Shown here one piece after another: positions 28,252-35,217 of a stretch of 64,000 nt of DNA. Made by a program: the position numbers and the translations under genes. Each line of letters starts with the position of its first letter. Position 1 is the stretch's first letter. Source of the stretch: a bacterium (lineage in GTDB: Archaea; Thermoplasmatota; E2; JACPAO01; JAHFTW01); contig JAZJZE010000005.1 of the NCBI GenBank assembly GCA_040390065.1, positions 160,001 through 224,000 on the forward strand, in the 5' to 3' direction. The notes beneath the pieces were generated by a model. The model searched no databases, was not told the DNA's origin, and saw nothing but the letters and a program-made list of their open reading frames with translations.

Positions 28252-28396
28252 GGGCGCGGCACCCCGGCCGCCATGAAGAAGGGTTTGCTCCTGGGAATTG
28301 GGTCCATCCGGGGCCGGACAAGCCATGCCGTTCCAGAAGGCGTGCACGAAAAACTCTATCTGCCACCAGGTTCCTCCTTCAGGTGGTGGCCGTCTG

Positions 28397-30121
28397 ATGA
28401 GGACCCTCGTTGCTTTCCTGTTGGTCGGGGCGACCCTGACGATTGTCCCGGGGTCCGCCGACGCCGCGACCAGTTGGTGCGGCACGCAAGGCGTCACGTT
28501 GTTCTGTGACGACTTCACAACCAACCAGGGCTGGACGAAGTCCGGCTATGGCCTGCAGCCCTGCGGCAGCGACATCGGCCAATGCTACAACCCCACGGAC
28601 TGGCTGAAGTCCACCCGCGGCTGGGACTACGGCGTGTGGACTCCCAATGGTGACAGCAACTCGTGGTTCGTGGGCGTGCAGGGCGGCGGCCAGGATCTCG
28701 GCTACCTCGCGCCGCAGCCCTTCGGTCTCTTCCTGGGCGGCATTATCGCCGGCAAGGGTGCGGCTTGGTACGACGTGCGCAACGTTCTCACCTCCCCGCT
28801 CATCGACGCCACCGGCGCACAACTCACGACCATGAGCTATGCCGTGAAGGGCAGCTCCGAAGGCAGCCTGTACGACCGCCTCGAGGTCTGGGTGCAGGTC
28901 GCGGGCGGCGGCACCACGATGCTCGGCTCCTACGCTGGCAACCAGATCCAGGGCGACATCTGCAACTGCTTCTACACGTTCCCGTTCTCGGCGGCCTGGC
29001 TGTCCGGGCAGAAGTTCCAGTTCCTGTTCATCTTCATCGAGGATGCCAACACCGACAGCGTCACACCTCCGCCATGCCTGGCCGTGTCCGTCCCGACCGG
29101 TCAGTCGCCGCCGATTCCGCCCAACGCCGGGTGCCCCGTTGGAGCAACGGTCTGCGCGCCGGCGCTCTTCAGCGGCTCCGGCTGCCTGTACGGCGGCATG
29201 GGCTTCTGGGTTGACGACGTCATCGTACGCAAACTCACGAAGGCGCCCATCGCCCAGTTCGTCTACAAGTACAAACCCGTGTGCGAAGGCGGCTTCCACG
29301 TGGACTTCACGGACGGCTCCGTCGACACCGACGGCACCGTTGCAGCCTGGAACTGGGACTTCGGCGACAAGACGACAAGCAACCAGCAGAACCCGTCGCA
29401 CGACTACCAGTCGGAAGGCACGTACAAGGTCGTGGAAGACATCCAGGACAACGAGGGAAATCCTGCCCAGTACATCTTCACGATCATCCTGAAGTACACA
29501 AAGTGCCCCGAGCCGGGAAGCACTCAGGAACCAATCCCCATGACGGTGTCCGAAGGCAACCAAGCACAGACGCGGCCACCGCATGATGGCACGGACCCCG
29601 CCGCTGCAGGCCTCGACACCGACGGCGACGGCGTGCCCGACGCGATCGACCTCTGCCCCGCGCAGGCGGACGACCAGGCGGACTCCGACGGCGATGGCAT
29701 CGGCGATGCTTGCGACGTCGACGCGGACAACGACGGCATCATCAATCCACGTGACAACTGCGCGACGGTCCCGAACCCCGGCCAGGCCAACCTCGACGGC
29801 GACGAAGAAGGCGACGCGTGCGACGCCGACATCGACGGCGACGGCGTGCCCGACGCGGCCGACAACTGCCCGAGCTTGACCAACAAGGACCAGGCGGACC
29901 TCAACGCGGACGGAGCCGGCGACGCGTGCCAAATCGTGCGCAACGCCGCGGAGGACAAGACCTCCGAAGTCGGCGCATCCGCCGGCACCCGCACCGACTC
30001 ACAGGCCGGCTTGCCCAGGACGGTGCCGGCGGGATCCCCCACGGCAGGCATTGGCGCAATCGTCCTCGGCCTCGGCCTGCTCGCCGTCGCGCTGGTCGTG
30101 GCGCTGCGCCGCCGTAGCTGA
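28397..30121 (+). CDS. Cell-surface protein with PKD domain, thrombospondin type-3 repeats and C-terminal anchor
   Basis: Signal peptide; WNWDFGD PKD; DxDGDGxxDxxDNCP repeats; [14 protein letters not shown] tail. Confidence 0.9.
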
Positions 30122-30207
30122 ACGCCGGTCAAGCGTCAACAACCCTTGAATACCGAGGGGGTTTGCCCGCGGACGCAGAAGGACATTCTGCCTCAACGGT
30201 GAACACA

Positions 30208-30507
30208 ATGGCAATCTTCGGATGGAAAAAGAAGAAGGCAGAGGCAGGCACCACGACCACGGCCGCCACGGCGAAGGCTGGAGCCGACATGAGTTGCGGC
30301 TCAGCGAAGGGCGGCGACATGTCGTGCGGCTCGGCAAAGGCCGAGGGCGGCGCGGACATGAGCTGCGGCTCGGCGAAGGGCGGCATGCCCACCGTCAAGG
30401 CGTCCGCCAAGATGACGCAGAAGGCGCCCGCCAAGAGGGCCAAGACGCCGGCAAAGACCAGCGTCAAGGCGAAGGTCGCGGCCAAGCCTGCATCGAAGAA
30501 GAAGTGA
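30208..30507 (+). CDS. Putative MNIO RiPP precursor: 3x DMSCGSAK plus Lys/Ala-rich tail
   Basis: 99 aa from ATG 30208; repeats start at 30286, 30316 and 30355; ends 6 bp upstream of the DUF692 gene. Confidence 0.85.
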   Translation: MAIFGWKKKKAEAGTTTTAATAKAGADMSCGSAKGGDMSCGSAKAEGGADMSCGSAKGGMPTVKASAKMTQKAPAKRAKTPAKTSVKAKVAAKPASKKK

Positions 30508-30513
30508 CACGGC

Positions 30514-31359
30514 ATGGGCCGCCTTTCCCCCTCCTCCCTCCCTTTCCTTGGCGCCGGCATCGGCTACCGCGGTGACCTCGCCAGGTTCTTTCGTCGGCAC
30601 GATGCCCGCATCGGCTTCTTCGAGGTCATGCCTGAGCACGTCGTCCACGGCGCTGCCGAACGGCGCGCCCGTTTGTTCGAGCACGTCGCCGGCAAGCCCG
30701 TCGTGACGCACAGCGTCAGCCTCAGCGTCGGCACGGCGACCGGGGCCGACCTGGTCTTCGCACGCAGCATGGCACGCATCAACCGCAAGCTCCGCGCGGC
30801 GTGGTGCAGCGACCACCTTTCGTTCACGCGCATCGGTGGGCAGAACATCGGCCAACTCACGCCAATCCCGTACACGGACGAGGCGCTTCGCCGCGTCGTC
30901 GCCAACGTCAAGGCAGTGCAGGCTGCGGTCGGCCTACCGTTCCTGCTGGAGAACATCTCGCAATACTTCCGGTACCCGCGCACGGACATGACGGAGCCCG
31001 AGTTCTTCCGGGAGGTGACCGCGCAAACGGGCTGCGGCATCCTCCTGGACGTCACCAACCTGCGCAACAACGCCGCCAACATCGGCGTCAAAACCAAGGC
31101 GTACCTCGAGGCCTTCCCGCTCGACCAAGTGGTGCAGCTCCACCTTGCCGGCTCCGAGTGGATTGGCGGCAAGCTCCTCGACACGCATGGGGCCGCAATC
31201 CACCGGGACGTCTGGCGCATGGCAGACGACATCGTGCAGGCGCATCCCGTGCGCGCCCTCCTCATCGAGCGCGACCAGACATTTGGGCCACTTCCGCAAC
31301 TGGCTCGCGAGATCCGCCGCGGGGCCACGACCATGCGCAACGCCATGGGGGCTGCCTGA
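30514..31359 (+). CDS. DUF692 multinuclear non-heme iron oxidative enzyme (MNIO)
   Basis: GAGIGYR, FFEVMPEH, THSVSLSVG, SDHLSF, LLENI, LLDVTN, QLHLAG, DTH, LIERD. Confidence 0.95.
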   Translation: MGRLSPSSLPFLGAGIGYRGDLARFFRRHDARIGFFEVMPEHVVHGAAERRARLFEHVAGKPVVTHSVSLSVGTATGADLVFARSMARINRKLRAAWCSDHLSFTRIGGQNIGQLTPIPYTDEALRRVVANVKAVQAAVGLPFLLENISQYFRYPRTDMTEPEFFREVTAQTGCGILLDVTNLRNNAANIGVKTKAYLEAFPLDQVVQLHLAGSEWIGGKLLDTHGAAIHRDVWRMADDIVQAHPVRALLIERDQTFGPLPQLAREIRRGATTMRNAMGAA

Positions 31360-32096
31360 TGGGACTTGCATCCGTGCAGCAGGCGGTCGCGACTCTCCTC
31401 ATGGAGGACACCGTCCGGGAGGCTTGGGTCGTGAATCGTTCCGCCTTTGCGCGCAAGTGGCGCCTGGCGGGACGCGACGCACGCCTAGTGGCCGGGTTGG
31501 ACGCACGCGACCTGACGTACTTCGCCGCGCACCGCCGCATCGACCGCATGGCGATGCTCGCGGCCGAGATGCCCCGCAGCGCAAGGACGCTGGGCGAACG
31601 CGGCCTCGGCTCGTATTTCCAGCGTCATCCATACGCCCTCGAGGCGACGGCCGCCGAGACCGCGCGCTTTGCCGCATGGGCCGCGCGCCATGCGAAGCCG
31701 GCCGTCGCGGACCTGGTCCGCTTCGAGATGGCGCAAGCGCGCTTGCGACGCGCCCGCCCCCGCGCCGCCGCCGCGTCCGTCCACCCGACGCGCGCGCCCG
31801 GGGTCGTCCTGCTGCGCCTTGCGCACAGGGTCGACGGCACGCGTCTCCGGCCGGCCAGCCCGACGTTCTATGGATTGCGGCGACTCTCGGACGAAGTCGC
31901 CTGGTTCCGGTACGGCGCCTTGGAGGAAACGCTGCTGCGGACCGCCAACGGCCGGACCGGCGAAGCGGCATGGTTGCGGCGCGCGGCGAGTGAATGTGAC
32001 ATGGCCATTTCGGCTGCGCGGGCGGCGGCGCGTGAACTGCGCACCGTCGCACTCTTGTGTCCAACCACGCACAAACGCCAAGGCCCCGCCAGATAA
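31359..32096 (+). CDS. MNIO partner protein (DUF2063/HvfC-like)
   Basis: TGATG coupling to MNIO; LASVQQAVATLL, MPRSAR.LG, F..W, VADLVRFEMA pattern typical of MNIO partners. Confidence 0.75.
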   Translation: MGLASVQQAVATLLMEDTVREAWVVNRSAFARKWRLAGRDARLVAGLDARDLTYFAAHRRIDRMAMLAAEMPRSARTLGERGLGSYFQRHPYALEATAAETARFAAWAARHAKPAVADLVRFEMAQARLRRARPRAAAASVHPTRAPGVVLLRLAHRVDGTRLRPASPTFYGLRRLSDEVAWFRYGALEETLLRTANGRTGEAAWLRRAASECDMAISAARAAARELRTVALLCPTTHKRQGPAR

Positions 32097-32142: not shown

Positions 32143-33267
32143 ATGCAGACGGAACAGCTTTGCTGGTCCCCCCAGACCGGCTGGAGCCCCCGCGAAGCCG
32201 CCCTGAAGCCGAACCTTGTCCTCGTCTTTGGCAGCCCATCCGCGATGTCCCGCGACGGCGCCTTCGAGGAATTGCGCCGGCTCTACCCCGACGCCCACCT
32301 CGTCGGCTGTTCGACGGCCGGGGAGATTGCCGGCACGCATGTCATGGACGATTCGCTCGTGGCGACGGCGGTCCGCTTCAAGAAGGCCCACGTGGAAGTC
32401 GCACGCGTCAACCTGCGCGATGGCCAGTCGAACGAGGACCTCGGCGCGGCGCTTGCGACCAAGCTCCCGAAGGACGGACTGGCGCATGTCCTCGTCTTCT
32501 CCGACGGCACCCATGTCAATGGCAGCAGCCTCGTGAAAGGCATGCTTGCGAAATTGCCGGCCGGCGTGCAAGTGACTGGCGGCCTTGCCGGCGACGGCGC
32601 GCGCTTCCAGCAGACGTTCGTCATGGCCGACGCAAGGGCCGCCGACCGGAGCGTCACGGCCATCGGATTCTACGGCGCGGACTTGCACATCGGCTACGGC
32701 AGCCTCGGCGGCTGGGACTCGTTCGGCCCGATTCGCATGGTGACCAAATCCAAGGGCAACGTCCTCTACGAACTGGACGGCCAGCCGGCCCTCACGCTCT
32801 ACAAGAGATACCTGGGCGAACACGCGGCGGCGTTGCCTGCGGCAGGTCTTCTTTTCCCCCTCAACATCACCTCCAACGGCGGTCCGAGCCTGACGCGCAC
32901 CATCCTGGCGGTCGACGAGGCAGCGCAGACCATGACCTTCGCGGGGGACATCCCGCAGGGATCGCGTGCCCAACTCATGAAGGCCAACTTCGACCGCCTC
33001 GTCGACGGCGCACACGGCGCGGCGGAGCAGAGCCGTGACCTGCTCGGCGCCGGAGCGGAACTGGCGATCCTCATCAGCTGCGTCGGCCGCAAGCTCGTGC
33101 TCAAGCAGCGCGTCGAGGAGGAACTGGAAGCGGTGCAGGACGTGCTTGGCCCCAAGGCCCTCCTGGCCGGTTTCTATTCGTACGGCGAGATTTGCCCGGC
33201 AGCACCCCGGGCCAACTGCGAACTGCACAACCAGACCATGACGATCACGACCTTGCGGGAGACGTGA
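32143..33267 (+). CDS. FIST N/C domain sensor protein
   Basis: GCSTAGEI, VTGGLAGDG, GGWDSFG, LYELDGQPAL, ISCVGR, GFYSYGEI, LHNQTMT. Confidence 0.93.
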   Translation: MQTEQLCWSPQTGWSPREAALKPNLVLVFGSPSAMSRDGAFEELRRLYPDAHLVGCSTAGEIAGTHVMDDSLVATAVRFKKAHVEVARVNLRDGQSNEDLGAALATKLPKDGLAHVLVFSDGTHVNGSSLVKGMLAKLPAGVQVTGGLAGDGARFQQTFVMADARAADRSVTAIGFYGADLHIGYGSLGGWDSFGPIRMVTKSKGNVLYELDGQPALTLYKRYLGEHAAALPAAGLLFPLNITSNGGPSLTRTILAVDEAAQTMTFAGDIPQGSRAQLMKANFDRLVDGAHGAAEQSRDLLGAGAELAILISCVGRKLVLKQRVEEELEAVQDVLGPKALLAGFYSYGEICPAAPRANCELHNQTMTITTLRET

Positions 33268-33351: not shown

Positions 33352-35217
33352 GTGCACAAGCTTCTCGAGCGTCAACTCAAGAAGCACTTCGGCAGCCTGG
33401 AGGCAGTGCCGGCCGACCTTGCGCCGGTCCTCGACCAGATTGACCGCTCCTACACGGAAGCCGACGCCGACCGGCGGCTGGTCGAGCGGTCCCTCGAACT
33501 CACGTCCGGCGAACTCCTCGAGCGCAATTCCGCCCTCACGGCCGAACTGGAAAACCGGACCTACACGGAGAGCTTGCGCTCGGCCATCCTGGACTCGGCG
33601 CTCGACTGCATCATCCTCATGGACCAGCAAGGTATCGTGCGCGAATTCAACCCGGCCGCCCAGCGGACCTTCGGATTCACGAGGGAACAAGCCGTTGGCA
33701 AGCGGCTGGCCGAGCTCATCATCCCGGAGAAGTACCGCGCGGCCCATTCAGCTGGGCTGCAGAAGTACCTCGCCACCGGCGACGGACCGGTCCTGCACAA
33801 GCGCATCGAGATCGTGGGTCTGCGCGCCGACGGGAGCGAGATTCCTGTCGAGCTTGCCATCATCCCATTCAAGGCGGCTGGGCAGGCCATGTTCGCCGGA
33901 TACCTTCGCGACCTGTCCGACCGGATGAGGGCCCAGGAAGAGATCCGCCGCCGTACCGCCACCGTGCAGCTCCTGCAGCAGGTGCCGCTCTTGGCCAACG
34001 AGGCGGATTCCATGGACGAGGCGGCCCGGCTGTGCCTCGAAAAGGTCTGCGAGTACACCGGCTGGCCTGTGGGCCACGCCTACTTCGTCAACGAGGCGGA
34101 CACCGAGATGACGTCGCATGGCGTCTGGCGTTTGCCGCCGGGCCTCGAGTTCGAAGCCTTCCGTACGGTGACGGAGGCGACGACGCTTGGGCCGGGTATC
34201 GGCCTTCCGGGGCGCGTGTGGGAGAGCCGCAAGCCCGCGTGGATTCCGGACGTGATGAAGGACAACAACTTCCCGCGCGCCACGCGGGCCCAGGCCATCG
34301 GCGTGCACAGCGCCTTCGGCATCCCTGTCCTGGTGGGTCACCGCGTGCTCGTCGTCCTGGAGTTCTTCTCCGACCACATCCGCGAGCCCGACGAGGAACT
34401 CCTGACCGTCATGGCCAACGTGGGCGAACAGCTTGGCCGCGTCCTCGAGCGCCGCCGGGCGGAAGCCGAACTCAAGGCCGCCTACCAGCAGTTGCAGGAG
34501 GTGGACCGCGCACGCATCCAGTTCATCAACACCGCCGCCCATGAGTTGGGCACACCCCTGACGCCGATCAAGCTGCAAGTGGAGATGGTGAAGAACCGCC
34601 TGGACGCCCACGCCGAACCGCAGCAACGCAAGAGCGTCGAGATCCTGGAGCGAAACGTCAGCCGCCTGTCCCACCTCGTGAAGGACCTCCTTGACTCGGC
34701 CCGCCTGCAGACCGGCCAGCTCCAAGTCGTGCCGCAGACCCTGGACATCCACCAGGAAGCCGAACGCGCCGTCGAAGCCTACCGGCAGCCCGCCGCCGCA
34801 GCCGGCGTCCGCTTGACCCTTGCCCCGGGACGCCCCATGGCAATCCTGGCGGACGTGCGGCGCATCGGACAGGTCCTCGACAACCTCCTCTCCAACGCCG
34901 TGAAGTTCACTCCGCACGGCGGTGCGGTCCGCGTCGACGTGGAACGCACCGGCTCCTTCGCCCGAGTTTCGGTGCGTGATGGCGGCATTGGCCTGCGGCC
35001 CGATGCCATCGCCAAACTTTTCCAACCTTTCAGCCAGGTGCACGACACGATGCAGATCACGCAGCCTGGCACGGGCCTCGGGTTGTACATCAGCAAGGGC
35101 ATCGTCGAGGCCTTGGGTGGCGACGTCGGCTGCACCTCTCCCGGTCTCGGCAAAGGGTCGACGTTCTGGTTCACGCTGCGCCTCGCCGACCAAACCGCCG
35201 CCGCCAATCCCAAATGA
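33352..35217 (+). CDS. PAS-GAF sensor histidine kinase
   Basis: PAS FNPAAQRTFG, GAF GLPGRVW, H-box AHELGTPLT, NLLSNAVKF, DGGIG, GTGLGL. Confidence 0.95.
   Translation: MHKLLERQLKKHFGSLEAVPADLAPVLDQIDRSYTEADADRRLVERSLELTSGELLERNSALTAELENRTYTESLRSAILDSALDCIILMDQQGIVREFNPAAQRTFGFTREQAVGKRLAELIIPEKYRAAHSAGLQKYLATGDGPVLHKRIEIVGLRADGSEIPVELAIIPFKAAGQAMFAGYLRDLSDRMRAQEEIRRRTATVQLLQQVPLLANEADSMDEAARLCLEKVCEYTGWPVGHAYFVNEADTEMTSHGVWRLPPGLEFEAFRTVTEATTLGPGIGLPGRVWESRKPAWIPDVMKDNNFPRATRAQAIGVHSAFGIPVLVGHRVLVVLEFFSDHIREPDEELLTVMANVGEQLGRVLERRRAEAELKAAYQQLQEVDRARIQFINTAAHELGTPLTPIKLQVEMVKNRLDAHAEPQQRKSVEILERNVSRLSHLVKDLLDSARLQTGQLQVVPQTLDIHQEAERAVEAYRQPAAAAGVRLTLAPGRPMAILADVRRIGQVLDNLLSNAVKFTPHGGAVRVDVERTGSFARVSVRDGGIGLRPDAIAKLFQPFSQVHDTMQITQPGTGLGLYISKGIVEALGGDVGCTSPGLGKGSTFWFTLRLADQTAAANPK

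Follow-up and report, generated by a model that had tools for sequence, protein, structure and literature searches.

A candidate MNIO cassette with a cysteine-repeat precursor peptide in Thermoplasmatota archaea

Introduction

Can an archaeon carry a modification system for Cys-rich peptides of the kind described from bacteria, and what would such a system make? The question is raised by three tightly spaced genes in a 64,000-nucleotide stretch of DNA (the window; positions 160001-224000 of contig C5, GenBank JAZJZE010000005.1) from a 50-contig genome that is 89% complete with 0.3% contamination. The first gene encodes a small peptide with repeated cysteines, the second a multinuclear non-haem iron-dependent oxidase (MNIO) and the third a partner protein. 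An earlier note, made from the letters of this DNA, had taken them for an archaeal system that makes a ribosomally synthesised and post-translationally modified peptide (RiPP). In the bacterial captophorins, namely the bufferins (BufABC), oxazolin (HvfABC) and fontiphorin (FonABC), an MNIO and a partner of the PME1 type are described as installing 5-thiooxazoles on Cys-rich precursors in copper detoxification (PMC13097082; PMC12452194).

On balance, and with some reserve, we favour the reading that the three genes are a self-contained RiPP-type cassette of aerobic Thermoplasmatota, whose peptide is modified at its Cys repeats and acts as a cytoplasmic metal buffer. Most likely, the MNIO acts with the partner to turn the cysteines of the repeats in a very basic peptide into groups that bind metal, and by analogy the cassette is apparently an archaeal, cytoplasmic version of a bacterial copper-defence system. 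The reading is built on features that are seen directly, namely the order of the genes and how it is conserved, the family of the enzyme with its intact ligand set, the fold of the partner, the motif of the precursor and its lack of a hydrophobic N-terminus.

Architecture of the cassette

The genes and the Cys-bearing region of the precursor are located as follows.

30208..30507, + strand: precursor peptide gene (ATG at 30208, TGA at 30505-30507, 99 aa)
30286..30378, + strand: Cys-bearing core region, with DMSCGSAK at 30286-30309, 30316-30339 and 30355-30378 (presumed modification sites)
30514..31359, + strand: MNIO gene (DUF692, MbnB_TglH_ChrH family; ATG at 30514, TGA at 31357-31359, 281 aa)
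31359..32096, + strand: partner gene (ATG at 31359-31361, TAA at 32094-32096, 245 aa)

The stop codon of the precursor lies 6 nt before the start of the MNIO gene, and the MNIO stop and the partner start overlap in TGATG, one A being common to TGA and ATG. The three-gene unit claimed in the earlier note is reproduced in its coordinates, its overlap and its 99-aa peptide. The peptide is built of a leader (MAIFGWKKKK), a Thr/Ala-rich linker, three DMSCGSAK units and a Lys/Ala/Pro-rich tail. The first Ser of the three units is encoded by AGT, TCG and AGC, exactly as had been noted, and the differences between the units are all synonymous (5, 2 and 4 of 24 nt), in agreement with the claim that the repeat is kept at the protein level. 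When the entire 2.68-Mb genome was translated in all six frames (5.35 million residues), DMSCG appeared three times, each time at the precursor, and this locus is the only one with at least three SC[GS]S motifs within 240 nt. Scans of the precursor gave no Pfam or NCBIfam family match. It has no signal peptide, the highest mean Kyte-Doolittle hydropathy of any 15 residues is 0.31 and the isoelectric point (pI) is 10.2. An alternative TTG start at 30163, which would give 114 aa, was rejected; relatives start at conserved M-G-[ILF] codons, and the sequence upstream of the ATG is kept as DNA and not as protein. Rfam and tRNA scans of the window gave nothing.

The precursor and its relatives

Related loci were examined where the MNIO is at least 51% identical and enough upstream DNA is present. 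There are 14 such loci: the window, eight from genomes (L016-L023) and five from metagenomes (L024-L027 and L031). L023 and L027 have the same sequence, so that the 14 loci give 13 distinct peptides. Word-index protein searches gave little, and the peptide and partner homologues were therefore drawn from the DNA of these loci. A homologous small open reading frame (ORF) lies immediately upstream of the MNIO gene in 14 of 14 loci; its absence beside homologous MNIOs would have spoken against the proposal.

The 13 precursors are 41-154 aa long and have 3 to 15 cysteines each, with the motif repeated 3 to 15 times. All 78 cysteines share a [K/M]-S-C-[G/S/A]-[S/T] context. The position two residues before the Cys is K in 72 cases and M in 6, the position before it is S in 77 and A in one, the position after it is G in 44, S in 31 and A in 3, and the next is S in 63, T in 14 and A in one. 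Because this context is common to all 13 peptides, the conserved core is K-S-C-[G/S]-[S/T] and not DMSCG. The motif DMSCG, as first proposed, holds for the window but not as the conserved core; its Asp-Met is local and partly shared by the closest relative, L016, only. The leader follows M-G/A-[ILF]-F-G-x-K-K-K in the genus of the window, M-G-x-x-K-K-W-F-G-K-K in a second family and M-G-I-F-D-K-I-F-G-S-K-K-K in a third. None of the 13 precursors has a hydrophobic stretch (highest 15-residue hydropathy mean at most 0.39), none contains His, and their pI values are 9.5-10.2. They show no EGKCG motif and no Pfam or NCBIfam match. The bufferin and Buf_EGKCG-oxazolin class is described by a Sec signal peptide with DUF2282 or EGKCG repeats (PMC12452194), which these precursors lack; a Cys-rich precursor beside an MNIO, by which captophorin biosynthetic gene clusters are described (PMC13097082), is what they have.

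A collection of 5.8 billion clustered proteins gave 44 candidates, with a single precursor relative among them (P0122, called with a longer N-terminus, 130 aa); the peptide of the window itself is unlisted among the matches. The family is almost unannotated, and small ORFs of this kind are nearly always missed by gene callers.

Two loci differ from the simple layout. At L006 3204-3308 (the same DNA as L022), a second precursor-like ORF, MDFLKKLFGKK.., with one KSCSS and one KNCSS, lies just 3' of the partner gene; by this locus, some cassettes carry two peptides. L023 1-3575, a Thermoplasmatota contig, encodes a 154-aa peptide with 15 cysteines, 14 of them in K-S-C-S-T units, and L027 has the same peptide. 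It is flanked by two MNIO-partner pairs, a partial MNIO with its partner upstream and the 51%-identical MNIO with its partner downstream.

The repeats allow a different reading of the product, in which cleavage at the flanking Lys residues breaks up the modified chain, and the resulting peptides, each about 6-7 residues long, are released as a metallophore or signal. Such a multi-core precursor would fit the range of repeat numbers among the relatives, the Lys-bounded units (K at -2 in 72/78 and at +4 in 56/78 sites) and the variable, dispensable-looking leader and C-terminal tail. However, no transporter is conserved with the cassette or found among ten scanned neighbours, the only protease-like neighbour is a Matrixin (metalloprotease) match in L021 that stays below threshold (21.1 bits against a cut-off of 24), and bacterial EGKCG repeat proteins are described as whole modified proteins (PMC12452194). 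We regard processing into small peptides as improbable.

Coding strand of the precursor

The precursor gene is overlapped by an antisense ORF (30129-30560, - strand, 143 aa) whose G+C content at third codon positions is 0.78. The antisense frame that shares its wobble positions with the peptide frame runs through the gene without a stop in 13 of 13 loci, so that the coding strand is undecidable from open frames or from counts of synonymous changes. The codons of the conserved Ser residues are more informative. At the position before the Cys, 25 codons are AGY and 52 are TCN, and two positions after it 29 are AGY and 34 are TCN. Switches between AGY and TCN are radical changes on the antisense strand, and therefore point to selection on the sense peptide frame. 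Opposite the motif, the antisense 5-mer takes 38 forms, as compared to the near-invariant sense motif, and the start codon, the leader and the stop of the precursor are kept on the + strand. The antisense ORF was rejected as a gene; it behaves like a compositional shadow, although it could mislead gene callers.

These data bear on whether the small ORF is a substrate at all. It might instead be an unmodified metallothionein-like or nucleic-acid-binding peptide that shares the operon, or the antisense ORF might be the real gene. The open antisense frames and the composition of the one in the window would suit the second form of this idea. The near absence of the peptide from annotated proteins would suit the idea as a whole, and its Lys/Ala/Pro tail, as we read the sequence, resembles basic nucleic-acid-binding tails. 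Against these stand the variety of the antisense 5-mers, the Ser residues kept across codon switches and the start, leader and stop kept on the + strand. Moreover, the peptide gene is always immediately 5' of the MNIO gene, and a Cys-rich small ORF at this position is described as the rule for MNIO substrates (PMC12452194). We consider it very improbable that the peptide is not the substrate.

The MNIO

The second gene, which had been assigned to DUF692, does belong there; the protein matches PF05114 with 251.8 bits (cut-off 25, E 8.4e-75, positions 1-258 of 263). The gene at 30514-31359 is the sole MNIO gene of the genome. The best scores with curated NCBIfam models were with the equivalogs BufB (NF050167, 215.6 bits, cut-off 310) and HvfB (NF003818, 180.1 bits, cut-off 360), followed by ApyH (109.3 bits, cut-off 400), MbnB (TIGR04159, 52.5 bits, cut-off 325), which places it outside the methanobactin system, and ChrH (39.6 bits, cut-off 600). 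Because both the BufB and the HvfB scores are under their curated cut-offs, the enzyme is a member of neither family but an analogue. With these as its nearest models and an archaeal host, the description as an archaeal analogue of the bacterial systems is borne out.

A search of the 5.8 billion proteins with the MNIO gave 341 matches. The first 73 full-length matches are 51-76% identical and the next ones at most 44%; near-identity to a described bacterial family, which would have undone the proposal, was not found. The named members of the first group are all proteins of archaeal metagenome-assembled genomes (MAGs), and those of the second group are bacterial (Thermoanaerobaculia, Caldilineaceae). 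When ten proteins of the second group were scanned, nine fell below the BufB and HvfB cut-offs and one, P0115, is a true BufB (385.6 bits). In a quick maximum-likelihood tree of 122 rows, from which two short rows were dropped, the 73 proteins, a group defined by identity rank, form one side of a branch of length 0.99 with SH-aLRT 100. A second archaeal MNIO type and the BufB-type rows, including P0115, fall outside this clade. In a sample of 401 genomes of the phylum, an MNIO of any type was found in 13 (E at most 1e-10), eight of which have the type of the window (G000, G048, G155, G202, G238, G088, G103 and G108).

The second archaeal type was found in L010-L014 (G343, G113, G143, G304 and G301). 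It is 34-38% identical, forms its own clade (SH-aLRT 100) and comes from the same genus and family. Downstream, L010 and L012-L014 have a partner-like gene of different build, and none is obvious in L011. No Cys-repeat peptide is obvious upstream in these five loci; in L012 and L013 a gene for a zinc-ribbon-like protein is located there.

The closest solved relatives of the MNIO are 3bww (1.6e-32), TglH (4.2e-22) and MbnB (1.5e-12). Ten residues, H66, H101, E146, D179, N182, H210, D223, H225, E252 and D254, do not vary among the 24 clade members compared. The nine ligand positions among them align with the H, DH, EN, D..N, H, D.H and E motifs of MbnB (7dz9) and 3bww, so that the metal-ligand motifs are indeed intact. 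The iron ligands of MbnB are given as H54, H90, E133, D163, N166, H192, D208, H210 and E239 (PMC9060507); the mapping to this OB3b enzyme was made by motif order and spacing and not by direct alignment to 7tcr. We infer that D254, the invariant Asp of an E-R-D motif, corresponds to FonB-Asp249, the proposed catalytic base (PMC13097082). The residue after D254 is Gln, conserved in at least 90% of the clade, and Phe in 3bww, which has been placed in an MNIO-PME1 RiPP locus (PMC13097082). That position is described as a selectivity determinant, with Phe in Lys-Cys MNIOs and Asp in Cys-Lys MNIOs, and FonB as preferring a Cys-Gly dyad, with a small residue after the Cys (PMC13097082).

The partner protein

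The partner had been called DUF2063-like. This is correct by fold and by profile, but not by Pfam signature, as the protein gave no Pfam or NCBIfam match, DUF2063 (PF09836) included, even at E up to 10. By signature it is also outside the PME1 class of the captophorin clusters, which is described by a DUF2063 Pfam domain together with a RiPP recognition element (RRE) (PMC13097082). The partner diverges faster than the MNIO (31-47% identity among relatives as compared to 61-75%). A word-index protein search found only the partner itself, and a sequence-profile search of the PDB found nothing meaningful (best E 1.5).

An AlphaFold2 model made with eight homologues has a pLDDT of 90.9 and a pTM of 0.82. 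It shows an N-terminal helical domain (about residues 1-130) and a C-terminal winged-helix, RRE-like domain (about residues 150-229) with three strands and three helices. In a Foldseek search against the PDB, the sole strong matches were to TglI (8hi7_A and 8hci_A; E 1.7e-6, TM 0.60/0.56, full length), with which the sequence identity is 15%. Weak matches (E 0.2-5) were to the RRE domains of PqqD, TbiB1 and PbtF, and 3dee is not among the matches listed. A profile search of 1.84 billion representatives gave 212 relatives, 20 of them at E up to 1e-30. Ten distant relatives were scanned, of which one carries DUF2063, one NGO1945_C, one a PqqD fused to a glycosyltransferase, and seven nothing. 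With hhalign, the archaeal partner profile matched the DUF2063-bearing protein with a probability of 96.9% and the NGO1945_C-bearing protein with one of 96.1%, over 225-235 columns. The structural neighbours in the ESM Atlas are DUF2063/NGO1945_C clusters (TM 0.76/0.67), an 'HvfC/BufC N-terminal domain' cluster (TM 0.68/0.64) and MNIO-DUF2063 fusions.

A PME-type 2 partner is described as encoded after the MNIO, without a DUF2063 signature and structurally akin to NGO1945 (3dee) or TglI (8hi7) (PMC12452194). The partner gene follows the MNIO gene in the window and in L016-L023, that is, in every KSC-type locus that reaches past the 3' end of the MNIO gene. Because its fold matches TglI and DUF2063/NGO1945_C without a Pfam signature, we assign the partner to PME-type 2. 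The same source pairs precursors that lack a signal peptide with partners that lack the DUF2063 signature. A predicted complex of the MNIO, the partner and residues 1-60 of the peptide scored 0.02 where the mark is 0.32; made without control runs, it weighs neither way.

The partner and the MNIO together bring in the rival that has to be taken most seriously. The same cassette may act on the same substrate by another MNIO reaction, such as excision of the beta-carbon as by TglH, formation of an oxazolone-thioamide as by MbnB, or a new reaction that involves the neighbouring Ser/Thr. Several features fit this rival. The only strong match of the partner to a solved structure is TglI, and TglH ranks second among the solved relatives of the MNIO. 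A long stem separates the MNIO clade from the BufB-type rows, the Gln beside the putative base is found in neither described captophorin group, and the Ser before the Cys and the Ser/Thr two positions after it are each kept at 77 of 78 sites. Methanobactin precursors likewise have small residues, such as Gly-Ser, after their modified cysteines. On the other side, the scores with MbnB and ChrH are far under those with BufB and HvfB. TglH uses a C-terminal Cys (PMC12452194), whereas all cysteines are internal and repeated here, and the MNIOs of the large BufB/HvfB group that have been re-examined are all described as installing 5-thiooxazoles (PMC13097082). We therefore hold another reaction to be possible but rather unlikely.

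The upstream region

Two elements were found between the upstream gene and the precursor.

30145..30153, + strand: A/T-rich box CTTGAATAC, candidate archaeal TATA-like element, with equivalent boxes in related loci
30175..30191, no strand: inverted repeat GCAGAAGGACATTCTGC, candidate operator near the expected transcription start

The boxes at the equivalent place upstream of related precursors are CTTGAATAC, CTGAAATAC, CTGATATAC, CTTTCATAC and CTTATG.., and from its sequence the box at 30145-30153 is a candidate promoter element. The inverted repeat starts 21 nt past the end of the box; it is located 33 nt before the ATG of the precursor in the window and 33-63 nt overall. Its consensus is GCAGAC-G/A-AACGTTCTGC, with a GAACG/CGTTC core in more distant loci. 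The strict pattern is present in 8 of the 13 upstream regions long enough to judge (the window and L016-L022; L024, with 5 nt of upstream DNA, was left out). Near variants with the GAACG/CGTTC core are found in L025, L026 and L031, and the shared sequence of L023 and L027 has a different inverted repeat. Judged by its letters, this conserved DNA resembles a promoter whose operator is placed where transcription would begin. GCAGA-N6-TTCTGC occurs once in the genome of the window, at the palindrome, and the looser GCAGA-N7-TCTGC three times; the site is unique in the genome and therefore no regulon can be inferred.

Host genome and neighbourhood

The host is an archaeon, as had been claimed. The genome encodes a TATA-binding protein, a family that, among control genomes, was detected only in the four archaeal ones, and its small-subunit rRNA matches the archaeal model over the full length (1451 bits). 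The related loci come from MAGs named as Thermoplasmatota, Thermoplasmata or 'Halobacteriales' archaeon. Because the flanking genes for PurT and a DEAD-box helicase match those of related MAGs in identity (80-89%) and order, the contig belongs to a Thermoplasmatota lineage. The genome also encodes subunit I of a haem-copper oxidase (COX1, 547.5 bits), and therefore an O2-dependent enzyme and a copper economy are plausible.

In the genus of the window, the cassette sits between PurT and the DEAD-box helicase. The conserved unit is the three genes alone, and the flanking genes vary between lineages. Downstream in the window are a FIST_N/FIST_C protein (32143-33267, + strand; weakly NosP-like, at 63.9 bits where the cut-off is 450) and, 3' of it, a PAS-GAF-HisKA-HATPase histidine kinase (33352-35217, + strand). 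The pair adjoins the cassette in the window, in L016 (downstream) and in L017 (upstream, with a shorter kinase), and L018-L020 lack it; the pair might, or might not, serve the cassette as a sensor. Directly upstream, at 28298-30121 (+ strand), is the gene of a protein of 607 aa that begins with a signal-like segment, contains a PKD domain and thrombospondin type 3 repeats, and ends in a hydrophobic anchor. L016 has a counterpart with 55% identity; the other loci showed none. An ArsR-family helix-turn-helix protein with a weak V4R-like C-terminus is encoded upstream of the cassette in one family of relatives, at L006 483-1208 (L022 1332-2057) and L021 5544-6263. It has no tblastn match in the genome of the window, and with the FIST and kinase genes limited to the window, L016 and L017, we assign no linked regulator. 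Ten neighbouring ORFs of L019, L020 and L021 were scanned; they include no transporter and no copper gene, the matches being to a HAD hydrolase, a glycosyltransferase, a GDSL lipase, a BNR repeat, a PEP-utilising enzyme and the weak Matrixin. No DoxX or DUF2282 gene was seen near the cassette.

Proposed function

The substrate would be the small basic peptide. By analogy with TglHI, MbnBC and HvfBC, its short N-terminal leader would be bound by the winged-helix RRE domain of the partner. The partner and the MNIO would form a heterodimer, as TglI does with TglH and HvfC with HvfB, in which the partner presents the repeats to the MNIO. With O2 and a di- or tri-iron site, the MNIO would work through the [K/M]-S-C-[G/S]-[S/T] repeats and oxidise their cysteines one after another. 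The likeliest reaction would be a four-electron oxidation to a 5-thiooxazole, as in the bufferins, oxazolin and fontiphorin, with a loss of 4 Da per Cys. A single polypeptide would then bear 3 to 15 ligands in a chain for a soft metal, likeliest Cu(I), and would remain in the cytoplasm to buffer metal. Expression would probably be governed by a repressor that binds the conserved palindrome, which lies between the TATA-like box and the start codon.

The 5-thiooxazole is the likeliest product because the nearest curated families, BufB and HvfB, make 5-thiooxazoles; by that analogy such chemistry probably takes place on the peptide, and a multi-site ligand for Cu(I) is its most likely function. 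A cytoplasmic location of the product is probable, given a peptide that lacks a signal and a cassette that includes neither protease nor transporter. Judged from the precursors, it is probably not exported, unlike bufferins and oxazolin.

Several points weigh against this proposal. Scores below the cut-offs and a stem of its own as long as 0.99 mean that the function of BufB and HvfB need not be shared. By sequence, the clade has Gln beside the putative base and neither the Phe nor the Asp of the described captophorin groups. The best solved match of the partner is TglI, whose TglH does a different reaction. The conservation of the Ser before the Cys (77/78) and of the Ser/Thr after it (77/78) is stricter than a simple 5-thiooxazole site seems to need, which may point to additional recognition or chemistry. 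In the loci compared and in the ten neighbouring ORFs scanned, no copper gene accompanies the cassette. Among the sequencing runs listed, no RNA run contains the stretch; the only one that does is a DNA run, which may be the source sample. An unmodified Cys-rich peptide could itself bind metals, and the peptide may have an export route that is independent of a signal peptide.

Given a clade of its own, the Gln, a partner that resembles TglI and the strictly kept Ser and Ser/Thr positions, there is real room for other chemistry. One version of this would be a cytoplasmic, strongly cationic poly-heterocycle peptide, made by an MNIO reaction that does not give 5-thiooxazoles, tethered by its tail to nucleic acid or to a membrane surface and giving a protection other than periplasmic copper buffering. 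The Ser-Cys-x-Ser/Thr pattern, the clade Gln and the TglI-like partner would then mark a new chemistry of Cys or of Cys and Ser. We think this version unlikely, and put the 5-thiooxazole-bearing cytoplasmic metal buffer before it.

Comparison with known systems

We found no described archaeal MNIO system or product in the literature searched, although the supplementary tables of PMC12452194 and PMC13097082 may list these accessions; this agrees with the earlier statement that no characterised archaeal MNIO product is known. The broad survey took in archaeal genomes, and its text, as far as available to us, speaks of the eubacterial tree only (PMC12452194). In the literature as consulted, MNIO peptide metallophores are described as bacterial, mostly from Pseudomonadota, and exported; the cassette would extend them to archaea.

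Methanobactin synthesis by MbnBC on MbnA shares with the cassette the same nine ligand positions and several cysteines on one peptide. There, the leader is bound by the partner via the beta-sheet of its winged helix (PMC9060507), as is proposed here. The cassette differs in the low score of its MNIO with the MbnB model (52.5 bits against 325), in a partner without an MbnC-type signature, in having no export or uptake genes and in a far longer, repeat-built peptide. The 'adjamnio-1/-2' systems also combine a signal-less precursor with a partner that lacks the DUF2063 signature; they are bacterial (Massilia, Hahella) with folded AlphaFold models, and are likened here by description and not by sequence (PMC12452194).

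TglHI and TglA make the pearlin 3-thiaglutamate in Pseudomonas syringae (PDB 8hi7, 8hci). TglI is the best fold match of the partner and TglH the second-best solved relative of the MNIO, and the combination of a signal-less precursor and a PME-type 2 partner is the same (PMC12452194). In contrast, TglH acts on a single C-terminal Cys (PMC12452194), as compared to 3 to 15 internal repeat cysteines here, and the partner is only 15% identical to TglI.

The captophorins have the same gene order of precursor, MNIO and partner. The MNIO of the cassette is nearest to the BufB and HvfB models and has retained every iron ligand position as well as the Asp of the E-R-D motif. The precursor is rich in Cys and made of repeats in which a small residue follows the Cys, as in EGKCG repeats, and the partner has a DUF2063/NGO1945_C-like two-domain fold. 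Unlike the captophorins, the cassette has an archaeal host and a precursor without a Sec signal peptide, and its partner shows no DUF2063 Pfam signature. Its MNIO scores below the cut-offs, belongs to a separate clade and, next to the putative base, has Gln where theirs have Phe or Asp. The motif of the precursor, K-S-C-[G/S]-[S/T], has the Lys at -2 rather than at -1, and no DoxX or DUF2282 genes were seen near the cassette.

The cassette is thus an archaeal form of the systems of MNIO, partner and Cys-rich precursor and not a separate kind of system. New in it are the substrate motif, a minimal leader of about 10 residues, the absence of any signal for export and the type of its partner, which is non-DUF2063 and poorly understood. 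As a small, clean system of three genes, with 3 cysteines here and up to 15 in relatives, it is suited to asking how an MNIO-partner pair threads and processes repeats, how Cys selectivity depends on Gln as compared to Phe or Asp beside the putative base, and whether such peptides buffer copper inside the cell.

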